Source of the DNA: Vairimorpha necatrix
Taxonomy: Eukaryota
Direction of reading: 5' to 3'
NCBI GenBank assembly: GCA_036630325.1
Contig: CP142731.1
Span: 930,001-994,000, forward strand
Length of the DNA: 64,000 nt
Positions 10,345 through 54,238 of this stretch are shown piece after piece. The translations under genes and the position numbers were made by a program. Numbering within the stretch: the stretch's first letter is position 1; every line of letters begins with the position of its first letter. The notes under the pieces were generated by a model. The model searched no databases. It had not been told where the DNA came from and was given only the letters and a program-made list of their open reading frames with translations.

Positions 10345-10595
10345 TTTATATTACATAATTTTTATATTACATAATTTTTATATTACATAATTTTTATATT
10401 ACATAATTTTTATATTACATAATTTTTATATTACATAATTTTTATATTACATAATTTTTATATTACATAATTTTTATATTACATAATTTTTATATTACAT
10501 AATTTTTATATTACATAATTTTTATATTACATAATTTTTATATTACATAATTTTTATATTACATAATTTTTATATTACATAATTTTTATATTACA
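10345..10595. repeat. Minisatellite of the 16-bp unit TTACATAATTTTTATA: 15 perfect copies (10351-10590) plus partial units
   Basis: Read directly; the array continues at 13771-13803 on the other side of the LTR element. Confidence 0.97.
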
Positions 10596-10643
10596 TGTAT
10601 TTATTTATCATAATGAGGGTAAAAATTATCAAAATATATAACA
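10596..10643 (-). repeat. 3' LTR (48 bp)
   Basis: Identical (48/48) to 13723-13770; minus strand TGTTATATATTTTGATAATTTTTACCCTCATTATGATAAATAAATACA. Confidence 0.95.
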
Positions 10644-10653
10644 TCCCCCCTCC
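10644..10653 (-). other. Polypurine tract (GGAGGGGGGA)
   Basis: Purine run directly abutting the TG of the 3' LTR on the minus strand. Confidence 0.9.
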
Positions 10654-10666
10654 AAGACGGTTAGTC

Positions 10667-13600
10667 TCACTTTATCCTTAACCCAAGCAGACTTTTTAGA
10701 TCATAGTGCCTTTTCTTTACATATCTTCCATTTACTAACTTAACTATATAAGAATCATTGCCACATCTCTCTATAATTTTCCCACTCTCTAAAAACCTAC
10801 CTTTCGAATATTTATCCGCACCTTTCAAGTTTTCCTTCTTAGCTACTCTCACGTACTCACCTACTTTAAATTTTTCCCGTTTCCCCCTGTTAAACAGTTT
10901 TCCATATTTCCCCTGTGGGCTATTTTCAATCATTACATGTCCAGTTTTATCCTCTGTCGCTTCTATTGGTGTACATTTTAGTGCCGTGTGGTAACTCATA
11001 TTATATTTTTCAATGCTTCCCATGACCTTCTCTGCAAATGTACCTTCTTTAGTCTTCAGAATGCTCTCTCGCAGCGTACCTATAACCCTCTCGACTCTGC
11101 CATTACTCCTGTGTGATTCGACACTTACTTTCCTATGTTTAATTTCTAGTCTGTTACACAACTCTCTAAACCCCTCATTGATAAATTCTCGCCCATTATC
11201 CGTTATAATCTCTTCGGGCTTTTTTCCTTGTTCACACAACTTACTTAAAAATTCAGTCACATTCTTTCCAGTCTTGTTCTCCATTACCGTGCCCCATACT
11301 CTTCGAGTGTAATAATCTATCGCAACCAATACGTATTTACCTGCGTCTCTAAAATCAATGAGATCCAAAGCAACCTTTTCTAAATAACGTGTAGTATCTA
11401 CAAACTCACATCCACCGAGTCTTTTTCTATTATATATTTGACATTGTACACACTTTCGAATTGTCTCATTTATGTCCTTCTTTATTCCGGGCCAATAAAA
11501 TCTTTCCCGCATCGCGTAATATACACTTGTCATACATCTATGTCCAACTTTTTCGTGGTATTCCTGCATCAAACTTTCCCTTGACTCTTCTGGTGGTATC
11601 TCGACTTTCCGTCCTGAATCAAATCTCCAATATTTTTTTCCTTCTGCGTCATCGACGTGCGCTTTCCATTTACCCTCTATCTGCTTGGCGGTCCTTTCTC
11701 TGATTTTCTTTTTCTTTTCATCGTCTTCCATATGTATCCTGCTTAACGCGTCAGCCACCACCATTTCTTCTGGTTTCTTATATTCTATGGTGAAGTCAAA
11801 TTCCTGGATCTTTTCAATCCATCTATTTATTCTATTGTTATTAAAACACGGTTTATTTCTAATCTCAACCAAGGCTTTATGGTCCGTCTCGATTTTAAAC
11901 TTCCTACCGCGCAACTCGTATTCAAATCTTTTTATCCCCCAAAATACCGCGTACATTTCTTTCTCCGATATAGTATATCTGGTCTCTGTAGGTGTTAACT
12001 TTTTTGAACTCCATTGGATTGCTACCCATTCATCTTTATCGTTCTTCTGAAGTAACACGGCTCCTATCCCTACATTGCTCGCGTCCGTTCTCAATATAAA
12101 TTCCTTCCTATAATCAGGCAATCTAAGTTTCCCCATCGCTCTCAAAACTTCTTTCAGCTCTAAAAACTCTCTATTCATTTCAACCGTCCATTCCCACTTC
12201 TTATCTTTACCTCTCAAGCTATCTGTCAGATGAATAGTTAATCCCGCGTAATTCTTTATAAAGTTCCTAAACCATCCTGTCATTCCTAGGAATCTTCGTG
12301 TTTCACTTACACTTGTCGGCTGCGGGAATTCCAACGCCTCGTTCTTCTTTATTTCATTCGCTTCAATATCTGTACCATTCAATGTGACTCCTAAGAGCTT
12401 AACTAACTGTTGGCTAAACTGTATCTTCTCAATATTCAATCTCATTTTATGTCTTTTTAATCTTTCCAATGCTTCTATAACTAGCTTGTCATGCCTTCTT
12501 TTAGTTCTAGCGTGTATAACGATGTCGTCCATATATACCTCCACTCCTTCTCCTTGTAAATCTTCAAATATTTGGTTCATTATTCGTTGTAAAATCTGAG
12601 GGGAATTTTTATATCCCATTACCATACTGTTCCATTCATATACCTTTCTGTTAAATTCAAAGTCCGTTTTGTGCTTATCCTCTTCTTCAATCTCTACGTG
12701 GTAAAAGCCTTCCTTCAGATCTATAACGGTAAACCATTTAGACCCCTGTGTGGCTCTAACGATGTCCCTAATATTTGACAACTCATACGGATCTTTTTCA
12801 ACTAAGTCATTTAAACTCATTAGATTACTTACAAGCCTTACTCCTCCGTTAGGTTTTACTATAGCTCTAATTGGGTTCCTCCACTCGGATGTTGATCTTC
12901 TTATAATCTTTCTTTCTTCCAAACTTTTTATATATTTTTCAGTTTTTTCCATCAACGCCTGTGGGATAGTTTGTCCTCTTTTAACTACTTTTTTCCCTGG
13001 TGGCGTCTCAATTTTACATTTCTCTATCTTACAGTGTACGATCTCTTCCTGCTGCAAGTCAAAAATTTCTCTAAACTTCGCTTTTATATCTTCAATGACA
13101 AGGCCCTCTTCTATTCTATCCTCTCTCATTCCTCTCCTTTTTGAATTTTGTTTACGTTTTGCTTCTCCGCATTTCCTATATTCTTGTGCGCTAAGTTCTG
13201 TGCTTGTAGATCCACTCTCTTCATGAACAATTAAATACTTGTTAAAATGTTTATTTTTATTATCTTCTTCTTTCCTCTTCCTTACGAAGCAATCTCTTGC
13301 CATGTGCCCAAATCTACCACAGTAAAAACAATCTCTACTTCTTACTCTCGTAGTTTCTTCCCTTATTTTTCCTAATGCTCCTCTATTTGCCAGCTCCTCT
13401 CGAACTGTTCCTCTAACCGACTCTGCAATTATTTCCATCATCTTACTTTTGTCTTCTTCTTCCTTCTTTTTTAATTCGTCCTTTCTAACCTCCTTTTCCA
13501 TTTCTTCAATAATTAAGGACCAACTATCTTCTTTTTTAATTCTTTCTACCATAAAGTTCTTTACTTCTTCCGAACCCATTTCATAAATTCTTGCCTTCCA

Positions 13601-13738
13601 TAGAGACTCATCTACTCCATCCAACTCTAGCTTATAAACTATTCTTTTAATTTCTTGTAACATTATTCTGGCCCCTTGACCACAGCCATCACTTGTTGAC
13701 TCTCGATTTGGTATCGCCCCCATGTATTTATTTATCAT
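10667..13738 (-). CDS. Gag-Pol polyprotein (CCHC nucleocapsid, reverse transcriptase, RNase H, integrase); no protease motif seen
   Basis: CFYCGRFGHMARDC; RT IDLKEGF, MVMGYKNSP, YMDD; RNase H TDAS, EKE, TDHKAL, ADALSR; integrase H-x4-H..C-x2-C, ALD, TDNG, GRVER. The track start at 13771 borrows a TSD base; the likely start is 13738 (after CCC) or 13723. Confidence 0.93.
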   Translation of the reverse strand: MINKYMGAIPNRESTSDGCGQGARIMLQEIKRIVYKLELDGVDESLWKARIYEMGSEEVKNFMVERIKKEDSWSLIIEEMEKEVRKDELKKKEEEDKSKMMEIIAESVRGTVREELANRGALGKIREETTRVRSRDCFYCGRFGHMARDCFVRKRKEEDNKNKHFNKYLIVHEESGSTSTELSAQEYRKCGEAKRKQNSKRRGMREDRIEEGLVIEDIKAKFREIFDLQQEEIVHCKIEKCKIETPPGKKVVKRGQTIPQALMEKTEKYIKSLEERKIIRRSTSEWRNPIRAIVKPNGGVRLVSNLMSLNDLVEKDPYELSNIRDIVRATQGSKWFTVIDLKEGFYHVEIEEEDKHKTDFEFNRKVYEWNSMVMGYKNSPQILQRIMNQIFEDLQGEGVEVYMDDIVIHARTKRRHDKLVIEALERLKRHKMRLNIEKIQFSQQLVKLLGVTLNGTDIEANEIKKNEALEFPQPTSVSETRRFLGMTGWFRNFIKNYAGLTIHLTDSLRGKDKKWEWTVEMNREFLELKEVLRAMGKLRLPDYRKEFILRTDASNVGIGAVLLQKNDKDEWVAIQWSSKKLTPTETRYTISEKEMYAVFWGIKRFEYELRGRKFKIETDHKALVEIRNKPCFNNNRINRWIEKIQEFDFTIEYKKPEEMVVADALSRIHMEDDEKKKKIRERTAKQIEGKWKAHVDDAEGKKYWRFDSGRKVEIPPEESRESLMQEYHEKVGHRCMTSVYYAMRERFYWPGIKKDINETIRKCVQCQIYNRKRLGGCEFVDTTRYLEKVALDLIDFRDAGKYVLVAIDYYTRRVWGTVMENKTGKNVTEFLSKLCEQGKKPEEIITDNGREFINEGFRELCNRLEIKHRKVSVESHRSNGRVERVIGTLRESILKTKEGTFAEKVMGSIEKYNMSYHTALKCTPIEATEDKTGHVMIENSPQGKYGKLFNRGKREKFKVGEYVRVAKKENLKGADKYSKGRFLESGKIIERCGNDSYIVKLVNGRYVKKRHYDLKSLLGLRIK
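13705..13722 (-). other. Primer binding site, TGGGGGC..., tRNA-Pro-like
   Basis: Directly follows the 5' LTR CA; first 7 nt equal the classical tRNA-Pro PBS start TGGGGGC. Confidence 0.65.
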
Positions 13739-13770
13739 AATGAGGGTAAAAATTATCAAAATATATAACA
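13723..13770 (-). repeat. 5' LTR (48 bp) containing AATTT, CCC-ATG and AATAAA
   Basis: Identical to 10596-10643. Confidence 0.95.
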
Positions 13771-13803
13771 TTACATAATTTTTATATTACATAATTTTTA
13801 TAT
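13771..13803. repeat. Right-hand remainder (~2 units) of the 16-bp minisatellite
   Basis: TTACATAATTTTTATA x2. Confidence 0.9.
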
Positions 13804-15067
13804 TTATATAAAAAAGTCATCAAAGGACATTTTAGTAGTTGTTATACGTGTTGCTCAAGAAAATAGAGGTTAATTTTACAGGAAAATATAGAATAACAGA
13901 ATTTAAATGACTCTATGGACTTATCATTTCTCTTCATAATACCCAAATTTTTTTCAGCAAAAGTTTGTAAAATTTCACATGGTTAACACAAACCATTGTC
14001 TTAGACGAATATATAAAAGAAAAAAGTTTACGATAAATATGCAATTTCATCAGACTCATCTCGCTTTTCTAATAATACCCTGCAAATATAAATTGCTTAT
14101 TTTACGCACTAATTTGGAAATTATTTCATATAGTTACGTTATTCGGCAAATAATAAAACAATACAAACTAGCGAAAAGAACATAAAAGATTTTACAAAAT
14201 TCTTTTCTCATGGAATAATTGCCTAATAATACACTTGAGAGTACTTCAATGCTTTTTCGGAATAGAGAAGTTTTAAATTAGAACGATAACAGAAAAGAGA
14301 ATTGGAACAGTCGTCCAAAACTCAATTGTTTTATTTAGATTTTCAGTTATTTTACAAAAATAAAACTTTAAGAAATATATAAAAAACTTCTACCTTATGG
14401 GATAGTAAATATGCAGTAAAATTTCAACTGATTTTAGTAAAAAATCTATTTAATGGCTCATGTCTTCAAAAAAATTTCTACATTTTATTTTGTTTTCTTT
14501 TCTATTTAAGACGAATTATTTGAATAGTTTTATAAAAAAGCGCAAAGTTTATACTAAAAAGTTTGAATTTACAAATGTATATTCCATCATTTTAAATGAA
14601 AACTATATAAAAATTTCCTAGTTTTGTATATAGAATTAAAGTCAATATTGCATAACTCACGTCATTAGAACAATTTGAAGTCTTATAATTGATTCAATAC
14701 TTTTTTGCACATTGCAGTAGTTTTTTCAAAAATATGGAACAAATTCAATTTTTCGAACCGTAAAAAAAGCTAAATGTTTCTTATAAACATAAAAATATTC
14801 AAATGGTCTATGTAAAACGAGGACTTATTATTTGATCCGTTTGATGAATTAAAAAGTAAAAAAAAAGTAACGGATTCTTCTAGTTTTTTCCATTACATTC
14901 GAATCTACATAGCATCATATAAAAATCAGAAATAATAATGTTCATTGACGTACAAACACTGCGAATGAAAAAAACATAAAACTAACATACCCTTAATATA
15001 TTGTTTATTGAAAAATACTTTTTAAAATTTTTTCATAAATATCATCAGGAACTCTTTTTGAATATCG

Positions 15068-15859
15068 TTATTCAATAGTCTGTGAATTAACTTTTCCATA
15101 ATCAATGGTTTGCAACACATTTCCGTTATTATAAACATTTTGTTTATGTTGATTGAGCCTATTAATATTATTTTCATTTTTACGGGACGTTATATTTCGT
15201 CTTATTTTTTTTGCAATAAATAAATAGTCTGCATTGACAAACACATTTTGAAATATATAGTTTTTCTTCTTTTCCATTTCTACTGTCAAATGTTTATCAA
15301 TATATAATTTTAAATCATTTGAAGTAAGGCTTTTAGTATTGAAATTAATACATAAAAGTGTAGCATATATATTTCTAGTTTTTTCTGCAAAAGATTTTGT
15401 AAATTCAAATATTTCTCCTTTCCTCTTACCATAATAGATTTTATGTAGATTTTCATTTCTTAGTATTGCATAGTATAAATTAAAGTTAATGTCTTCCCTA
15501 CCAATGTTATATTGCAAATAAACTGGTATAAAATCTTGAACATTTTTTATGGGGAAATTAATGTTATCCAGAACCAAATTAAACAATATTCTTGATATTT
15601 TTTCTGCTTCGTATTCGACAAATTCAGTCATCAGAAATGTATGAGCCGTTTGATGAAGTAAATGACAGCAGTCTCTAATCTCATTTTTTAAATTGTTTCT
15701 TTCTTTTGACTTTGAAGAGTTCTTGATCACCTTTTTTTCTGTGGTTTCTGTTTGTGTATGAACATTCATACTGGAATGCCTTAATCTTGTTTCTGTTTCA
15801 CTGCTACTTATTGATTGATATATGTGTAAAAACAATTTTAAGCTCAGAAAAAACATCAT
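15068..15859 (-). CDS. Putative secreted protein, 263-aa family, copy 1
   Basis: Hydrophobic N-terminus; family motifs ETET, DCC, LFNLVLDNINFPI, TLLCINFN; CCCCC before ATG. Confidence 0.85.
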   Translation of the reverse strand: MMFFLSLKLFLHIYQSISSSETETRLRHSSMNVHTQTETTEKKVIKNSSKSKERNNLKNEIRDCCHLLHQTAHTFLMTEFVEYEAEKISRILFNLVLDNINFPIKNVQDFIPVYLQYNIGREDINFNLYYAILRNENLHKIYYGKRKGEIFEFTKSFAEKTRNIYATLLCINFNTKSLTSNDLKLYIDKHLTVEMEKKKNYIFQNVFVNADYLFIAKKIRRNITSRKNENNINRLNQHKQNVYNNGNVLQTIDYGKVNSQTIE

Positions 15860-21331: not shown

Positions 21332-22123
21332 TCATATAGATACAGATAATCTGTATCTTTCATAACTAATTGGGTCCATCACTTTTCCGTTAGCATATCC
21401 TAAATTTTTATCTTGATTGAGCCTACTAAAATATAAATCATTTTTAAATGGTAAAATATAATGTTTTATATTTTTTGCAATTAAATAATCATCAGAAACA
21501 AACACTTTTTTGACAATATATTTTTTCCTTTTTCCCATTTTAATTGTCATATGTTTGTCGATATACAAAGATATTTCGGCCATTGAAAGCCGAAAAACAT
21601 TAAAATCAATACAAAGAAGTGTCTCATACATATTTCTGGTTTCTTTAGCTAAAGATCTTGTAAATTTAAATATCTCGTCTTTTTCTTCCCCATCATGAAT
21701 TATTTGTGAATTTTCATTTCTTAGTAAAGCATAATATAATTCATAATTTATGTCTTTTTTATGAATGAAGTATTTTGAATCCATTGACAAAATTTCTTTA
21801 GTATTCTTCCTTATAGGAAAATTAATGTTATCCATAACTAAATTAAACAAATTTTTTGCTATCTCTTTTGCTTCATAATCAAAAAATTCCGTCATCTGAA
21901 ACATAGGAAATTTTTGATGAAGTAAATAGCAGCAATCTGTAATTTCCTTCTTTATACTGTTTAATTTTTTTAATTTTTTCGACTTTTTTTTAGCAGCTGA
22001 TTTTTTGATTGTTTCAGGCTGTGTATAAACTTTTATAATGGGATGTCTTAATCTTGTTTCTGTATCACTACTACTTAAGGATTTATATATATGTAAAATA
22101 AATGTAAGGTACACAAAAAACAT
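21332..22123 (-). CDS. Putative secreted protein, 263-aa family, copy 2
   Basis: Same motifs as copy 1; CCCC before ATG; upstream ~300 bp resembles that of copy 1. Confidence 0.85.
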   Translation of the reverse strand: MFFVYLTFILHIYKSLSSSDTETRLRHPIIKVYTQPETIKKSAAKKKSKKLKKLNSIKKEITDCCYLLHQKFPMFQMTEFFDYEAKEIAKNLFNLVMDNINFPIRKNTKEILSMDSKYFIHKKDINYELYYALLRNENSQIIHDGEEKDEIFKFTRSLAKETRNMYETLLCIDFNVFRLSMAEISLYIDKHMTIKMGKRKKYIVKKVFVSDDYLIAKNIKHYILPFKNDLYFSRLNQDKNLGYANGKVMDPISYERYRLSVSI

Positions 22124-26981: not shown

Positions 26982-27773
26982 TTAAAGCAATAATGGTAAT
27001 ATGAATAGACTATCTTTTGTTATATTCTTTACTTTACCATCGTCATATATACTTTTTTTATATTGATTAAATCTTTCAAAATTAATCATACTATTATGTT
27101 CCAAAATACCGTAGAGTATATTTTTGTATATAGAGAAATATTCTTCAAGATCAAATACTTTTTTTACTTGATAATTTAGCTTTGTCCCCATTTTGATTTT
27201 CATATATTTATCAATGTACAGTCTTATGGCATTTGGAGATAGGTTTTGTACGTTAAAATTGATACATAAAAGTGTTGCAAACATTTTTCTAGTATGTTCC
27301 GCAAGAGATTCTGTAAATTTGAAATTTTCTTTTTCTTTGATACTATAATTTTTATTTGGATAATTATTTCTTAATAATTTATAGTATAATCGAAATTTAA
27401 CATCTCTCTTATTAATTGTATATTCTCTATAAACTTTCAAAACATCTTTTGTTTTATTCTTTATCGGGAAATTTATATTATCCAGAACTAAATTAAATAA
27501 CGTTCTTGATATCTCATCTGTTTCTTCTTCTATAAATTTTGTCATTGGAAATTTATGAATTTTTTGAAAAAATAATAAACAACATTCTTCTACTTGATTT
27601 TTTATAATATTTGTTTGTTCTTGATTCAATTTTTCTCGTATAACAACTGGATTTTGGCTAAAACTAGATTGTATTTTCATACCTACTATTTGTAATTTTG
27701 ATTTTGTCTCTGTTTCATTGATACCTATTGATTGATGTGTGTTATAAATGAACAATGTACAAACCAAAAACAT
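26982..27773 (-). CDS. Putative secreted protein, 263-aa family, copy 3
   Basis: Family motifs; CCC before ATG. Confidence 0.85.
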   Translation of the reverse strand: MFLVCTLFIYNTHQSIGINETETKSKLQIVGMKIQSSFSQNPVVIREKLNQEQTNIIKNQVEECCLLFFQKIHKFPMTKFIEEETDEISRTLFNLVLDNINFPIKNKTKDVLKVYREYTINKRDVKFRLYYKLLRNNYPNKNYSIKEKENFKFTESLAEHTRKMFATLLCINFNVQNLSPNAIRLYIDKYMKIKMGTKLNYQVKKVFDLEEYFSIYKNILYGILEHNSMINFERFNQYKKSIYDDGKVKNITKDSLFILPLLL

Positions 27774-31440: not shown

Positions 31441-32232
31441 CTATTCGATTGAAGGTAATCTTATATGAGTATGGTCATGATAATCTATCACTTTCCCATT
31501 ATCATATACATTCTGTTTATTTTGATTAAATCTTGAAAAATTAATTTCATTCTTATGTTTCATTGTAAAATACTGTAAATTTGCGCCAATCGAGTGATAA
31601 TTATCAGAATCGAATACTTTTTTGATCTTATAATTAAGCTTTGTACCCATTTTAATGTTCATATGTTTCCCTATATACAGTTTTATTTCATTTGGATTAA
31701 TAATGCGGATGTTGAAATTTATACACAAAAGTGTTGCAAACATTTTCCTAGTTTGTTGCGCAAGAGATTCCGTAAATTTATATATTTCCCTCTCATCAAT
31801 CCGATAAATTTCATCTGGAAAAATATTTCTAAGTAAATTATAATATAAATTATACCTAATATCTTTCCTATTAATTGTATATTTTCTACCCAATGGTATT
31901 GTATCTTGAATGTTTCCAATAATAGGAAAATTAATATTATCGAGAACAAAGTTGAATAGCGTTCTTGATATCTCATCAGATTCGGATTCGAAAAATATAG
32001 TCATTGGAAAATTATGAAAATTCTTAGAGAATAATTGACAACAGTCTTCTATTTCAAATTTTATATTATTGGTTTCTTCATAATTTAATTGTTTTTTTTT
32101 ATTAACTGGTTTTTTAGTGTTATTAGGTTGCTCATTCACACTTTTATTTGGAATTCTTAACATGGTTTCTGTTTCATTACTACCTATTGCTTGATGCATA
32201 TTCATAATATATGTTAAGTAGACAAAAAGCAT
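31441..32232 (-). CDS. Putative secreted protein, 263-aa family, copy 4
   Basis: Family motifs; CCCC before ATG. Confidence 0.85.
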   Translation of the reverse strand: MLFVYLTYIMNMHQAIGSNETETMLRIPNKSVNEQPNNTKKPVNKKKQLNYEETNNIKFEIEDCCQLFSKNFHNFPMTIFFESESDEISRTLFNFVLDNINFPIIGNIQDTIPLGRKYTINRKDIRYNLYYNLLRNIFPDEIYRIDEREIYKFTESLAQQTRKMFATLLCINFNIRIINPNEIKLYIGKHMNIKMGTKLNYKIKKVFDSDNYHSIGANLQYFTMKHKNEINFSRFNQNKQNVYDNGKVIDYHDHTHIRLPSIE

Positions 32233-34944: not shown

Positions 34945-36470
34945 CCGCGGAAAGTCTTCAAAAATTGATATAATGACAATCCATGTTATGTACTGTCATC
35001 GTTCGGAGCGGACGCCAGGGAAAATGCTACACGAGAAGGGCAAAAAAATAAACAAAAAACATGGTATTTAATTGTAATTCGTGTATAAAAATTCTTTAAT
35101 ATTAAAGGCATGAAAATAAAATTGAAAACAATGAAAAACAAGGAGTTTTTGTCTTTTTATAGATTGATAATGTTCCAACAAGGTTGGTAGAAAAACAAGA
35201 AAGAGATGCTTTTATGAAAAAGCAAAAAAAATTATCCTTTTTGAAGATGTGATTGACGGCATCACAGAGCTCACGGTGCGATTAAATGTAGGTCTATATA
35301 GATCATTAAGATTCTTTAACACCAACAAGCAACGATTCAAAATCGATTATATAAAATTGTTCCATGGATCAAATGGGCATGCGAGATGGAACGGATTGTT
35401 TCCATTATTGCAAACAAAGTCTACGACGCAACACAAAAAGATATCCAGAGAGTATTAGATAGCTGTAATATATGTCAAATAAAGAGAAATCTAGTAACTA
35501 GACCAGTTATTAGACCAATTGTAGCAAAATATCCAAGGGAAAGATATGTTGCAGACTTGATTGATCTCCGGCCATATCACGAACTCAATGAAGGCTATAA
35601 ATGGTTATTGTAGATTATTTTACCAAATTTTGTTGGACGGTATTACTGCTTGATAAAACAAGTATTAGTGTGGGGAATGCCTTTGAAACATTGTTTAGAA
35701 TGTTTGGTTCTTGTTCTATACTACATACTAATAATACTAATAACGGCAGAAAATTTGTAAATCAAGTACTCGTCGAATTATGTCGGAAATATGAAATAAG
35801 ACCTGTAAGGGGAAGAACTAGACGTCCATGGATACAAGAACAGATATAACGATGCAATCGTACAATAAATTAGATGATTGCATCTATTCACAGGACAAAA
35901 ATTTTTGGGGGCAATGGACCAAGGTAAGAGAAGAAGTTACCTGGTTATATAATAATTTAAGACACTCTACTACGAGACAAACACCATTCTCTCTGATATT
36001 TGGTAGACCCATTGGGGACATAATGGACGTGTCTAGAATCACGGGCATTATAGATTCGATTAATAGCAAAAACCACGAACAAGAGTACGGGGACGAAGAA
36101 CACACTGAAGAAAGTTTATAAGTTGTCTTAATTGCAATACTAATGAAGAAATACAGCAACTATTTGCTCTGAATAGCACAAACCTTTTTTTAAATGAAAT
36201 TTATCATGATGCAGCTAGAATTCATACACAAACTGCTGCAAATAGAATGGTACAAAGAAGTATGTGAGAAATGTTTTATTAGAATTTTTAATAGCAGTAA
36301 GACTCATCATAAGACCTTATTAAAAAAACGTCAATACTAGAAGACATTCTCTTTATAAACATTTAGATGCCGAGGTCTATGTTGTAACCGACATAATACA
36401 ATTTAATAAAGTAAAATTATGCAGAGAAGATGATAATGGAATTAATATAGATGAAATAAGTACTAAAGGT
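34945..36470 (+). mobile_element. Frameshifted integrase-like (rve, Ginger/GIN-type) transposase pseudogene
   Basis: H.SNGH..CNIC zinc motif, ERYVADLIDL, IVDYFTKF, LHT(D)NGRKF and YNNLRHSTTRQTPF spread across ORFs 35249-36121; no RT or RNase H upstream. Confidence 0.8.
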
Positions 36471-51314: not shown

Positions 51315-53486
51315 TTATTGTTTCCCCTTGTCTTTTAACGCCTTTATCAAATCATCGTGTAATTTTCCAGCAAAACTATTATAAACTTTAATAAAATGCT
51401 GTTCATTTAAGCTTGATCGAATATAAGCTAAATTTTTTTCACAAATTGATTTTGCGTGTTTATCATTGTTGATTTCATTTTTTAGCAAGTTAATAAGGCC
51501 CTGATGTAAATATCTCCTACGATTATTTTTTATATTTTCTGTTGTATAATATTTTATTGCCATGTGATAATTTTTTTTTGTTTCAACTATTAAGTAGTCT
51601 TTTAATTCTTTATTCATTCTATCAAATTTTTTAATTTCATTAAATGTTTTGTCAATAAAATCTGTTGCCATGTCAATCAACTTAGTCACAATGTTCTCAA
51701 TTAAAAGTTCATCCTGTAAAATTCCAATATCTGTATTTAAAGCCTTTTTTAGTATCTCATTTAAAGTTTTCTTGGAAGGATGTTTTTTTAAAATTTGCAT
51801 TGCGTACATAATTTCATCTTTCTTTTTAGTTCTTATACATTCATATTTTTTATCTTCTTGTATGTTTTTTAATAACTTAGATCTAATACTTTCAACGTAA
51901 TTTTTAACTTCTGTTTTATCAAGTTTTAGATATCTAATAATGTTTTTTTCGGATAATACACTTTTATCATGTTTAAAAAATATATCTGTATTTAATCTAG
52001 AAAATAATGATGCTATAGAACAAATTTTCATTATAATTTTAGCTTTATATTTAATAAAATGATCAAAATAATGACTTGCTAATAGATCTATTGTTTTAAA
52101 TAAATTCATATTTCTTGTAGTACTTTTTTTCGAATCTAGAAGATTATAGATATCTTTGAAATTTTTGAATATAAAATCTTCGTCTATATTATTTTCGTTC
52201 ATGTATCGTTCCGCCTCAATCAATAAACAAATTTGAATCAAATATAATCTTGTCCCATGAGTTGTAGCTAAGTGCTCATAAACAAGGTTTAATAGCTTAG
52301 TCCGAGTACTCTCATGATAGTTATTTTTTAACAACAAACTGGAAAGTATTTTTTCGTCTATTTTTTCATTATGTAAAAACAAAAGAAATAACATATGTAA
52401 TGCCGACCCCCTTCTATTTATTATATTAAAAATTAGTGTATTTATTTTGTCATTATATTTTAATAAATTGTACACTAATTTAACTCCTTTTATATTTTCG
52501 TGGCTATTCATACTAGAGAAGATTTTAAATATTTCCATCATTTCTACAAAAAATGCATCCGACATACCATTTTTCCTTTCAACACTATGTATATAATATT
52601 CTTCATCGTTATGATTTAAAAATATTCTGTCTGATTCAATTTCTACTTTAAGGTACAGATCATCATCAAATATTTCGATAAAATCTTTTGTACTTTTGAT
52701 CGGCAAAGTATGTGGCTTCATATAAAGACTATTGAAATTATCATGTGATTTTTCACTCAACTCAGTAAATTTTTTTAAAATGTCAATTTCAACTTTTTTA
52801 TCGGAGACAATTTCTGTATCTACAATGTTAAAAAGGTCTTCAATATACAACCTGAAAAGGTAGTAATTATTTTCTGAATGAATGTGAAATTTCATATAAT
52901 GCATAGGTTTATCAATCCCTTTTAAAATTACCTCAATATATGATTTTGCACTTTTCAACTTATTATTATAAATTTCACCTAAGAATAGTGTTTCTTCAAA
53001 TAACGAATTTATAGTAAAAATATTTTCATAATAAATTTCATAACCATCTTTTCGTTTGGCATTTATTTCTTTAATATGATTTATAACATCGCCGAAAGTA
53101 AAAGATTTATCGTTATTTATATATGTATCTATTTCACTTTCCTCATACAATAATAAAATTAGGTGATTATTTGGAAAATCAAATTGTGTTTTTATTTTAA
53201 TTTCAATTTCTTCTCTAATGTCATTTATAGATTTATTCTCACAATAAATATATAAAGGAGGTATGGTATTCTGTACATTCCAAATCGACATTCTAACTTT
53301 TATAAAATCTTTATCATATTCATTTTTATTTTTAAAAATATATACGTAGTTATATTTTTTCGTAGAATCAATTGAAAAATAGTCTCTAGTTTCGATTTTA
53401 TGCATAATTTTATCCTTTATTACATTTAATAAACAGGAATTAGCACGCACTACTAAAATCATAAAAAAAAAATTCATGAAAAACAT
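51315..53486 (-). CDS. Large putative secreted protein (~723 aa), intact member of a three-copy family
   Basis: Start at CCCCA-ATG (53486); hydrophobic leader; KDGYEIYYENI and LYLIQICLLIEAE shared with the paralogs. Confidence 0.85.
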   Translation of the reverse strand: MFFMNFFFMILVVRANSCLLNVIKDKIMHKIETRDYFSIDSTKKYNYVYIFKNKNEYDKDFIKVRMSIWNVQNTIPPLYIYCENKSINDIREEIEIKIKTQFDFPNNHLILLLYEESEIDTYINNDKSFTFGDVINHIKEINAKRKDGYEIYYENIFTINSLFEETLFLGEIYNNKLKSAKSYIEVILKGIDKPMHYMKFHIHSENNYYLFRLYIEDLFNIVDTEIVSDKKVEIDILKKFTELSEKSHDNFNSLYMKPHTLPIKSTKDFIEIFDDDLYLKVEIESDRIFLNHNDEEYYIHSVERKNGMSDAFFVEMMEIFKIFSSMNSHENIKGVKLVYNLLKYNDKINTLIFNIINRRGSALHMLFLLFLHNEKIDEKILSSLLLKNNYHESTRTKLLNLVYEHLATTHGTRLYLIQICLLIEAERYMNENNIDEDFIFKNFKDIYNLLDSKKSTTRNMNLFKTIDLLASHYFDHFIKYKAKIIMKICSIASLFSRLNTDIFFKHDKSVLSEKNIIRYLKLDKTEVKNYVESIRSKLLKNIQEDKKYECIRTKKKDEIMYAMQILKKHPSKKTLNEILKKALNTDIGILQDELLIENIVTKLIDMATDFIDKTFNEIKKFDRMNKELKDYLIVETKKNYHMAIKYYTTENIKNNRRRYLHQGLINLLKNEINNDKHAKSICEKNLAYIRSSLNEQHFIKVYNSFAGKLHDDLIKALKDKGKQ

Positions 53487-54238
53487 TGGGGTAAAAAAAA
53501 TTTTCATTAATCAAAATAAACAAAATCAATAATTTCTAAAAGTAAATATTTAATAATATTATTATGTGTTACATTTTAATGAAGAAATAACTAGGTTTTA
53601 GAATTCTAAATGAAAATTAAAATGTATTTATAATATTAAAGTAAGTTCAAAACTTAAGATGATAAAGATATTCTGTGAACATATTTTTGTTAAAACCAAT
53701 TCTAATAATATGACAATATATATACATATCAACGACAACATGAATTTTTTTTTAAAAATTAATATTCTATATTACGGGTCCTACGCCTAATGTGTTTATC
53801 AATGCAAAGTACAATGGAAAATACGGTCTAAATAATGGTATAAATTGAAATAGATTGCTACAATAAGTACAGATATTTTTTTTGCATGGGAATATAAGCT
53901 TTGAGGGCGTGGACATTGCTAAATTTTTTTAAGTTCCGACTCAACACGGCCCGTAAATCAGCAAATCTGTTTTTGAGAAATACATCGACAAAGTCGAATT
54001 TTTCAGATTTGTAATTTATTAGTAAAAATTTGTTTAATATTCTATAAACTTTCTGTTTTTGGATTTTAAAGTAATTTGCGTTTGTGTTAATAGTTCAATA
54101 AAGGCAAAATACAAACCCAATAAATTTGACTCCCTTTTTAAAAATTTACAGACTAGTGGAAATTAATTTTAGTACGATGCAACGATAATAAAATTGTGAC
54201 GGGGAATGGGAAAATATAAGATATATTTTGTGATATCC

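Follow-up and report, generated by a model that had tools for sequence, protein, structure and literature searches.

We analyzed a stretch of 64,000 nucleotides from the microsporidian Vairimorpha necatrix (assembly GCA_036630325.1, contig CP142731.1, positions 930,001 to 994,000 of the forward strand; hereafter the window), in which a preliminary description made from the sequence alone had placed a complete Ty3/gypsy retrotransposon with ultra-short long terminal repeats (LTRs). All coordinates are positions within the window. The element occupies 10596-13770, is 3175 bp in length, reads on the minus strand, and is bounded by two 48-nt repeats of the form TG..CA; its G+C content is 36.8%, compared to 25.3% for the rest of the window. 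Its sole long open reading frame (ORF), 10667..13771 on the minus strand, comprises 1034 codons. The 5' LTR is consequently the right-hand copy at 13723-13770, which corrects the orientation of the preliminary description. We consider it very probable that this copy is an intact, probably recently inserted member of a miniaturised microsporidian Ty3/gypsy lineage that carries out the usual retrotransposition cycle at its minimum. The features of the locus are given below in order of position, with residues numbered along the polyprotein encoded in the window (P0001); P0002-P0041 denote its 40 closest homologs, and L-numbers denote the loci of its relatives.

10345-10595, no strand: left part of the host 16-bp tandem array (unit ATTACATAATTTTTAT), split by the insertion (repeat search and phase test)
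10591-10595, no strand: left copy of the target-site duplication (TSD), TTACA (array phase)
10596-10643, minus strand: 3' LTR, 48 nt, TG..CA, identical to the 5' LTR (repeat comparison)
10644-10653, minus strand: polypurine tract (PPT) GGAGGGGGGA, adjoining the 3' LTR (sequence, and conservation in L009 and L003)
10667-13738, minus strand: single polyprotein coding sequence (CDS), 1023 codons plus TGA, from the ATG in the 5' LTR (ORF translation)
11132-11368, minus strand: integrase catalytic core rve, residues 802-880, with D803, D858, and E894 invariant (Pfam and alignment)
11426-11596, minus strand: integrase zinc-binding domain (Integrase_H2C2), residues 726-782, with H739, H744, C774, and C777 invariant (Pfam and alignment)
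11798-12115, minus strand: RNase H (RT_RNaseH), residues 553-658 (Pfam)
12380-12859, minus strand: reverse transcriptase (RT; RVT_1), residues 305-464, with YMDD at 413-416 (Pfam and alignment)
13094-13288, minus strand: linker between the zinc knuckle and RT, residues 162-226, the usual place of a protease; variable in length and predicted to be disordered
13289-13330, minus strand: CCHC zinc knuckle of the nucleocapsid type, residues 148-161, with C148, C151, H156, and C161 invariant (Pfam)
13331-13723, minus strand: Gag-like N-terminal part, predicted as a three-helix bundle plus one helix of about 60 residues, residues 17-147 (AlphaFold, predicted local distance difference test (pLDDT) mostly 94-98)
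13710-13722, minus strand: putative primer-binding site (PBS) starting with TGG, of uncertain extent, adjoining the 5' LTR and lying inside the CDS (position)
13723-13721, minus strand: alternative in-frame ATG, whose A is the final LTR base and whose TG opens the PBS (sequence and homolog N-termini)
13723-13770, minus strand: 5' LTR, 48 nt (repeat comparison and motifs)
13771-13775, no strand: right copy of the TSD, TTACA (array phase)
13771-13804, no strand: rest of the host 16-bp tandem array, right of the insertion (repeat search and phase test)

The 48-mer matches the window exactly twice, at 10596-10643 and 13723-13770, with 0 mismatches (48/48), and two or more matches to it were found in 0 of 100 dinucleotide-preserving shuffles, confirming the two identical TG..CA direct repeats of the preliminary description. 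Beyond the 48 nt, identity between the repeats continues for just 2 nt leftward and 1 nt rightward. Longer LTRs, of which these repeats would be only the part that can be seen, are therefore excluded.

The element was inserted into a perfect 16-bp tandem array of about 18 units in all, which now occupies 10345-10595 and 13771-13804. It is flanked on each side by TTACA, a 5-bp TSD that falls within the 4-6 bp expected of the LTR order, and it is the perfect periodicity of the target array that makes this TSD provable. When the element was removed in silico together with 0-8 bp, the period-16 phase across the junction was regained solely at +5 bp, and the 5 mismatches left over after that removal correspond to the natural end of the 16-bp array. 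Thus, the array phase supplies independent proof of the 5-bp TSD, which had already been proposed, and of the 48-bp boundaries.

Both internal priming signals noted in the preliminary description are likewise seen in the sense orientation. The tract GGAGGGGGGA stands immediately before the 3' LTR, 23 nt after the TGA stop codon, and L009 and L003 show DNA-level conservation of the 23 nt that separate the stop codon from the 3' LTR; at the other end, TGG follows directly upon the 5' LTR, in the position of a PBS. A PBS placed there would imply C as the discriminator base of the primer, which would fit a eukaryotic tRNA-Pro. The element is a structurally intact LTR retrotransposon with identical short LTRs, a clean TSD, a PPT, and a putative PBS.

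The CDS that starts at the LTR-internal ATG (13738) spans 3072 nt, or 96.8% of the 3175 bp, in keeping with the single ORF of about 97% reported previously. A Pfam scan with a cut-off of E<=0.01 places RT, RNase H, and integrase in the order that defines Ty3/gypsy (Metaviridae-type) elements, and YMDD, the integrase H-H-C-C, and the D-D-35-E triad (D803, D858, E894) are invariant among 16 aligned family members. No chromodomain, the mark of chromoviruses, was matched at the integrase C-terminus at the same cut-off. The assignment to Ty3/gypsy and the intact structure therefore stand, but the preliminary description goes too far in calling the element "complete", as it encodes no protease.

The case that the polyprotein encodes no protease comes from sequence comparison and structure prediction, which agree. 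No aspartic protease between Gag and RT is matched by Pfam in the window protein at E<=0.01, and the precomputed protease family is assigned to 0 of the 40 closest homologs, being present in more distant, longer matches. The linker from the knuckle to RT is only about 65 aa long in the window protein, its length differs greatly among the 16 aligned members, and no D-S/T-G is conserved in it among them. AlphaFold assigns a pLDDT below 50 to residues 180-221, and its model shows no beta-rich domain. Finally, when the family profile was compared by hhalign to L027, a relative that does carry a protease (residues 234-329), the alignment began at P0001 residue 227 and L027 residue 353, after that protease.

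The AlphaFold model covers residues 17-250 (27-row alignment, mean pLDDT 76) and predicts, in order, a three-helix bundle, a helix of about 60 residues, the knuckle, another helix, and a low-confidence stretch up to RT. Compared with known folds by VIA-align, the Gag part gives Z scores of 6.3-6.5 for the Arc C-lobe/C-terminal domain (CTD) and 5.7 for the Rous sarcoma virus (RSV) capsid CTD, all within the range that is common for helical models, and a Foldseek search of the Protein Data Bank (PDB) gave no match at E<=0.001, with matches at E>1. A Gag-only search of 1.84 billion representatives returned 120 matches, mostly to the zinc knuckle alone, the family-specific ones being mostly fragments, and gave no link to another Gag family. 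A single capsid-like lobe in the modelled Gag part may thus be taken as a lead, not as a result.

The LTR itself looks like a core promoter and start site of the host type. On its sense strand, it carries TATATAT at 4-10 (13761-13767), CCC at 25-27 (13744-13746), ATG at 33-35 (13736-13738), AATAAA at 39-44 (13727-13732), and the terminal CA, with the CCC placed 5 nt ahead of the ATG. Among the other window ORFs of at least 200 aa, 8 of 9 have CCC no more than 12 nt upstream of their ATG, compared to 89 of 2221 ATGs (4.0%) on both strands, and the host gene start tttaCCCttcaATG resembles the LTR start tttaCCCtcattATG. Enrichment of CCC right upstream of start codons is described for Nosema ceranae and Encephalitozoon cuniculi in the available text of PMC2685015. 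The one host ORF of the nine that has no CCC in the 12 nt ahead of its first ATG lies at 51315-53507 on the minus strand; its true start may be elsewhere. The preliminary description had suggested that the miniaturised LTRs match the compaction of the host genome; this fits poorly, as the window is gene-sparse, with 10 ORFs of at least 200 aa in 64 kb. The LTR mirrors the minimal promoter/untranslated region (UTR) and start-site layout of the host, not its genome size.

Coding reaches into the LTR at one end of the element in the window copy, and at both ends in some relatives. The ATG at the LTR/PBS junction and the ATG at LTR 33-35 are both in frame with the polyprotein. Of the 40 homologs, 25 were scored as N-terminally complete by a script criterion (which dropped P0010, although it has the start pattern), and 21 of these 25 begin with M followed by A or G, or with M and up to 7 residues before a second M followed by A or G. 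At the other end, 10 of the 40 homologs have C-termini that run through the PPT into the LTR and end in ..GG-D/M-V/L... The L018 ORF extends from the last base of its 5' LTR to 18 nt within its 3' LTR.

The closest proteins, 46-87% identical to the window polyprotein, come from V. necatrix, Nosema granulosis, Enteropsectra breve, and many further assemblies; most close homologs are about 1000 aa long and lie on contigs of 3.0-3.2 kb, and their source annotations call some of them "Tf2-9 polyprotein", "reverse transcriptase", or "endonuclease". Terminal repeats compare as follows.

Window element: LTRs of 48 bp, identical; 3175 bp; ORF of 1023 codons; no protease
L003 3' LTR and L002 5' LTR (the latter on the minus strand of L002): 49 bp, 44/49 identical; element not complete
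L018: LTRs of 58 bp, identical; 3364 bp; ORF of 1088 aa; no Pfam protease match
L027: LTRs of 75 bp, identical; 3590 bp; ORF of 1153 aa; clear protease
L021: LTRs of about 190 bp; ORF of 1221 aa; weak protease match (E 7e-4), below the Pfam cutoff

Likeness between the L003 and L002 repeats begins exactly at TGTT after the PPT/flank and stops at CACA before the TGG/flank; they were compared by anchoring at these junctions, as MAFFT alignments of the termini were uninformative. The L027 LTR repeats the layout seen in the window, namely TATATAT, AACCC-ATG, AATAAA, and GACA, followed by TGG. Extremely short LTRs are therefore a trait of the lineage, as the preliminary description had supposed: those of a second subfamily measure 49 bp, and those of relatives further away 58 and 75 bp. 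A direct-repeat search in L001-L003 gave nothing useful, since these elements are truncated or nested: at L001 1-80 and L002 1031-1100, the reversed LTR and PBS end of one family member interrupts the RNase H region of another. Three genome bins (G001, G002, and G003, which lie behind L009, L010, and L011) are labelled as bacterial metagenome-assembled genomes (MAGs) of Clostridium, Turicibacter, and Rubritalea and hold 43, 16, and 159 polyprotein matches, respectively; these are eukaryotic retroelement contigs binned with bacteria. A scan of viral contigs gave no match.

Contigs from four public sequencing runs were compared with window positions 10550-14100, and those of two runs point to copies at other sites. 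In run X1, a 3101-nt contig spans 10639-13739 with 11 differences, and its word depth is 20.4, compared to 3 for the right-flank contig, a depth that is not a copy number. A second X1 contig, of 442 nt, matches 13716-13770 with 5 differences, beyond which its next 70 nt do not resemble the window, and a contig of run X2 departs from the window past 13771. Copies at other sites therefore share the terminus at 13770. Parts of the flank are uncovered in X2, and no weight is placed on this. No contig among the four runs crosses the whole insertion. Given the intact ORF, the identical LTRs, the clean TSD, and the near-identical contigs that reach the same terminus with other flanks, the insertion is probably recent, and recent activity, as proposed in the preliminary description, is plausible. 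As a separate observation, word depth in run X2 over 10550-14100 varies more than 200-fold (from about 1,600 to 377,000) over many short contigs, with 533, 352, and 148 contigs at 99% identity or more, 95-99%, and 90-95%, respectively; this spread of depth and identity points to many subfamilies or to a non-genomic library.

Taken as a retrotransposon, the element could complete the usual cycle as follows. The 48-bp LTR would act as a host-type core promoter through its TATA-like box and the CCC 5 nt ahead of the ATG, and since this start layout is the same as that upstream of host genes, transcription would begin about 15-25 nt before the LTR end, near the CCC. The AATAAA would be skipped near the cap and used as poly(A) signal in the 3' LTR, leaving an R region (plus any U5) of about 15-20 nt. 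This short R/U5 and the PBS would have to support both strand transfers; we infer from this geometry, in line with the preliminary description, that strand transfer works on a few tens of nucleotides. Translation would begin either at the LTR-internal ATG or at the one that spans the LTR/PBS junction, and the resulting Gag-RT-RNase H-integrase polyprotein would remain uncleaved, at about 120 kDa, or be cut by a host protease. Integrase would then join the CA ends, generating the 5-bp TSD.

A bolder version of this proposal is tentative, and we would sooner doubt it than adopt it: the lineage may be the smallest autonomous LTR retrotransposon, with a 48-bp LTR, an R region of about 15-20 nt, a CDS that takes in the PBS (and the PPT too in some members), and no protease of its own, in which an uncleaved or host-cleaved Gag-RT-RNase H-integrase protein with a coiled-coil Gag acts in cis, nearer to a ribonucleoprotein of the long interspersed nuclear element (LINE) type than to a retrovirus-like particle.

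The absence of a protease could instead mean that the element is a non-autonomous or dead-end derivative, in which the protease was deleted and which either spreads by means of the protease or particles of protease-bearing relatives or is immobile. A protease-bearing relative with short LTRs does exist (L027), and to our knowledge a protease is required for maturation in the elements studied so far. Yet the protease-less form is no one-off, as the protease Pfam family is missing from 40 of the 40 closest homologs, which stem from many assemblies and at least three named microsporidia; these homologs keep ORFs of about 1000 aa while diverging by up to about 50%, and their catalytic residues are invariant, as expected where purifying selection has long acted on a lineage that replicates. 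Near-identical copies also occur in other runs, and we judge this derivative origin to be rather unlikely. It is far less probable still that a protease is present in the linker or the N-terminal part and is too diverged to be recognised. Microsporidian proteins do diverge fast, and L018 has a D-S/T-G about 270 residues upstream of its YxDD without a Pfam protease match, but the linker of about 65 aa, variable in length among the 16 members, has no conserved acidic-S/T-G and is predicted to be disordered, the N-terminal part is confidently modelled by AlphaFold as all-helical, and the profile alignment to L027 starts past its protease.

Hardly credible, in our estimation, is the reading that the 48-bp repeats are not functional LTRs and arose as a chance or assembly duplication around a retroelement-derived (for example, domesticated) gene. 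A tandem array is a location prone to misassembly, and common LTR finders would not call the element; however, the 48-bp repeat is unrelated to the 16-bp array unit, the shuffles yielded no second match, the ends are TG..CA, the TSD is in exact array phase, the PBS and PPT are rightly placed, independent relatives have the same layout, and contigs from two other runs share the terminus but not the flanks.

Several observations weigh against our preferred reading of an intact, recently inserted member of a replicating lineage. Within the 64-kb window the element is a single copy, with no further copy and no solo LTR within 3 mismatches, and a tRNA scan of the window found 0 genes, leaving the putative PBS without a tRNA partner there. 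No matching TSD was found at L018 and L027 in their metagenome contigs, a candidate 47-nt LTR at L010 lacks the CCC, and no second LTR copy of L009 was found in its genome bin, so that its LTR length is not fixed. The 48 identical bases date the insertion only weakly. The transcription start site, the poly(A) site, and the length of R are all placed by sequence motifs. The missing protease could mean dependence on other elements or no independent movement, and the Nbr polyproteins of Nosema bombycis are said to hold a protease, according to a secondary source (PMC2474625).

Among the other genes in the window are a TFIIH Tfb2 homolog, the best named relatives of which are microsporidian (N. 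granulosis, 47%; E. cuniculi, 42%), and a gene for a beta-CASP/metallo-beta-lactamase protein; the host belongs to the Nosema/Vairimorpha clade of microsporidia. Four paralogous ORFs of 263 aa lie on the minus strand at 15068-15859, 21332-22123, 26982-27773, and 31441-32232, 4.5-6 kb apart. They share 41-52% mutual identity, have no Pfam match, and each has a hydrophobic, signal-peptide-like N-terminus and CCC close upstream of its ATG; by their sequences, they look like a tandem family of secreted proteins. A short integrase-core-like stretch on the plus strand (35601-35801; 31% identity to P0001 residues 815-878, tblastn E 2e-5) is probably the relic of another retroelement or of a DDE transposon.

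LTRs are usually about 100 bp to several kb in length, and common LTR finders use a minimum of about 100 bp, such that annotation by LTR structure would overlook this family altogether in the genomes of microsporidia, leaving its members listed only as "reverse transcriptase" or "endonuclease" genes. An apparently active, coding lineage with LTRs of 48-58 bp sets a far lower bound for what the promoter, the R region, and the integrase ends need. The loss of a protease in a conserved, multi-species lineage bears on whether LTR retrotransposition truly needs Gag-Pol processing, and the LTR copy of the host CCC-ATG layout offers a model of a microsporidian promoter that is compact and can be tested.

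Ty3 of Saccharomyces and Tf1/Tf2 of Schizosaccharomyces are about 5 kb long, encode a protease, and have LTRs that measure a few hundred bp. They share the Ty3/gypsy domain order and the 5-bp TSD with the window element, and Tf1/Tf2 also have one gag-pol ORF, whereas the window element has 3.2 kb, 48-bp LTRs, and no protease. Nearer at hand are L027 and L018, which lie on metagenome contigs binned in a bacterial MAG and have 33-39% protein identity to the window element. They are like it in the succession of TG.., AT-rich box, CCC, ATG, AATAAA, and ..CA followed by TGG, and in an ORF that starts in the LTR or at the LTR/PBS junction. L027 has a recognisable aspartic protease (E 3.5e-8) and no CCHC match by regular expression.

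Single-polyprotein Ty3/gypsy elements of microsporidia are already known. The main text of Parisot et al. 2014 (PMC4202319) describes three microsporidia-specific groups which, like the window element, have a microsporidian host, are of the RT-RNase H-integrase type, and have gag and pol fused in one ORF; the single gag-pol ORF found here in a microsporidian genome is in keeping with these groups. Neither LTR lengths nor element sizes appear in that main text, which has 0 occurrences of the word protease, though its supplementary tables may list LTR lengths. The Nbr LTR retrotransposons of N. bombycis (Xu et al. 2006, as summarised in PMC2474625) resemble the window element in their Nosema/Vairimorpha-clade host, their Ty3/gypsy type, and their one polyprotein, but, compared by description only, they hold five domains (Gag, protease, RT, RNase H, and integrase), including the protease that the window element lacks. 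The V. necatrix genome paper counts 109 retroelements and, in its available text, makes no mention of LTRs (PMC10759460). We found in the literature searched no LTRs below 85 bp, no protease loss in microsporidian elements, and no protease-less autonomous Ty3/gypsy element, a search which is no proof of absence and lay outside Repbase, Xu et al. 2006, and the Parisot supplements, the last two of which may hold such data. Thus, while the family is known, its anatomy, with 48-bp promoter-like LTRs, coding from the LTR over the PBS, and no protease, appears to be undescribed. The nearest parallel in size is FRetro129, a SMART element of grasses that was published as the smallest LTR retrotransposon; in the available text of PMC3281118, it is 292 bp long, non-coding, and non-autonomous, with 85-bp LTRs that are termed very short. 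It is like the window element in its very short LTRs, its TGT..ACA ends, and its 5-bp TSD, but its 85-bp LTRs bound a non-coding element, whereas the 48-bp LTRs in V. necatrix bound a coding one.

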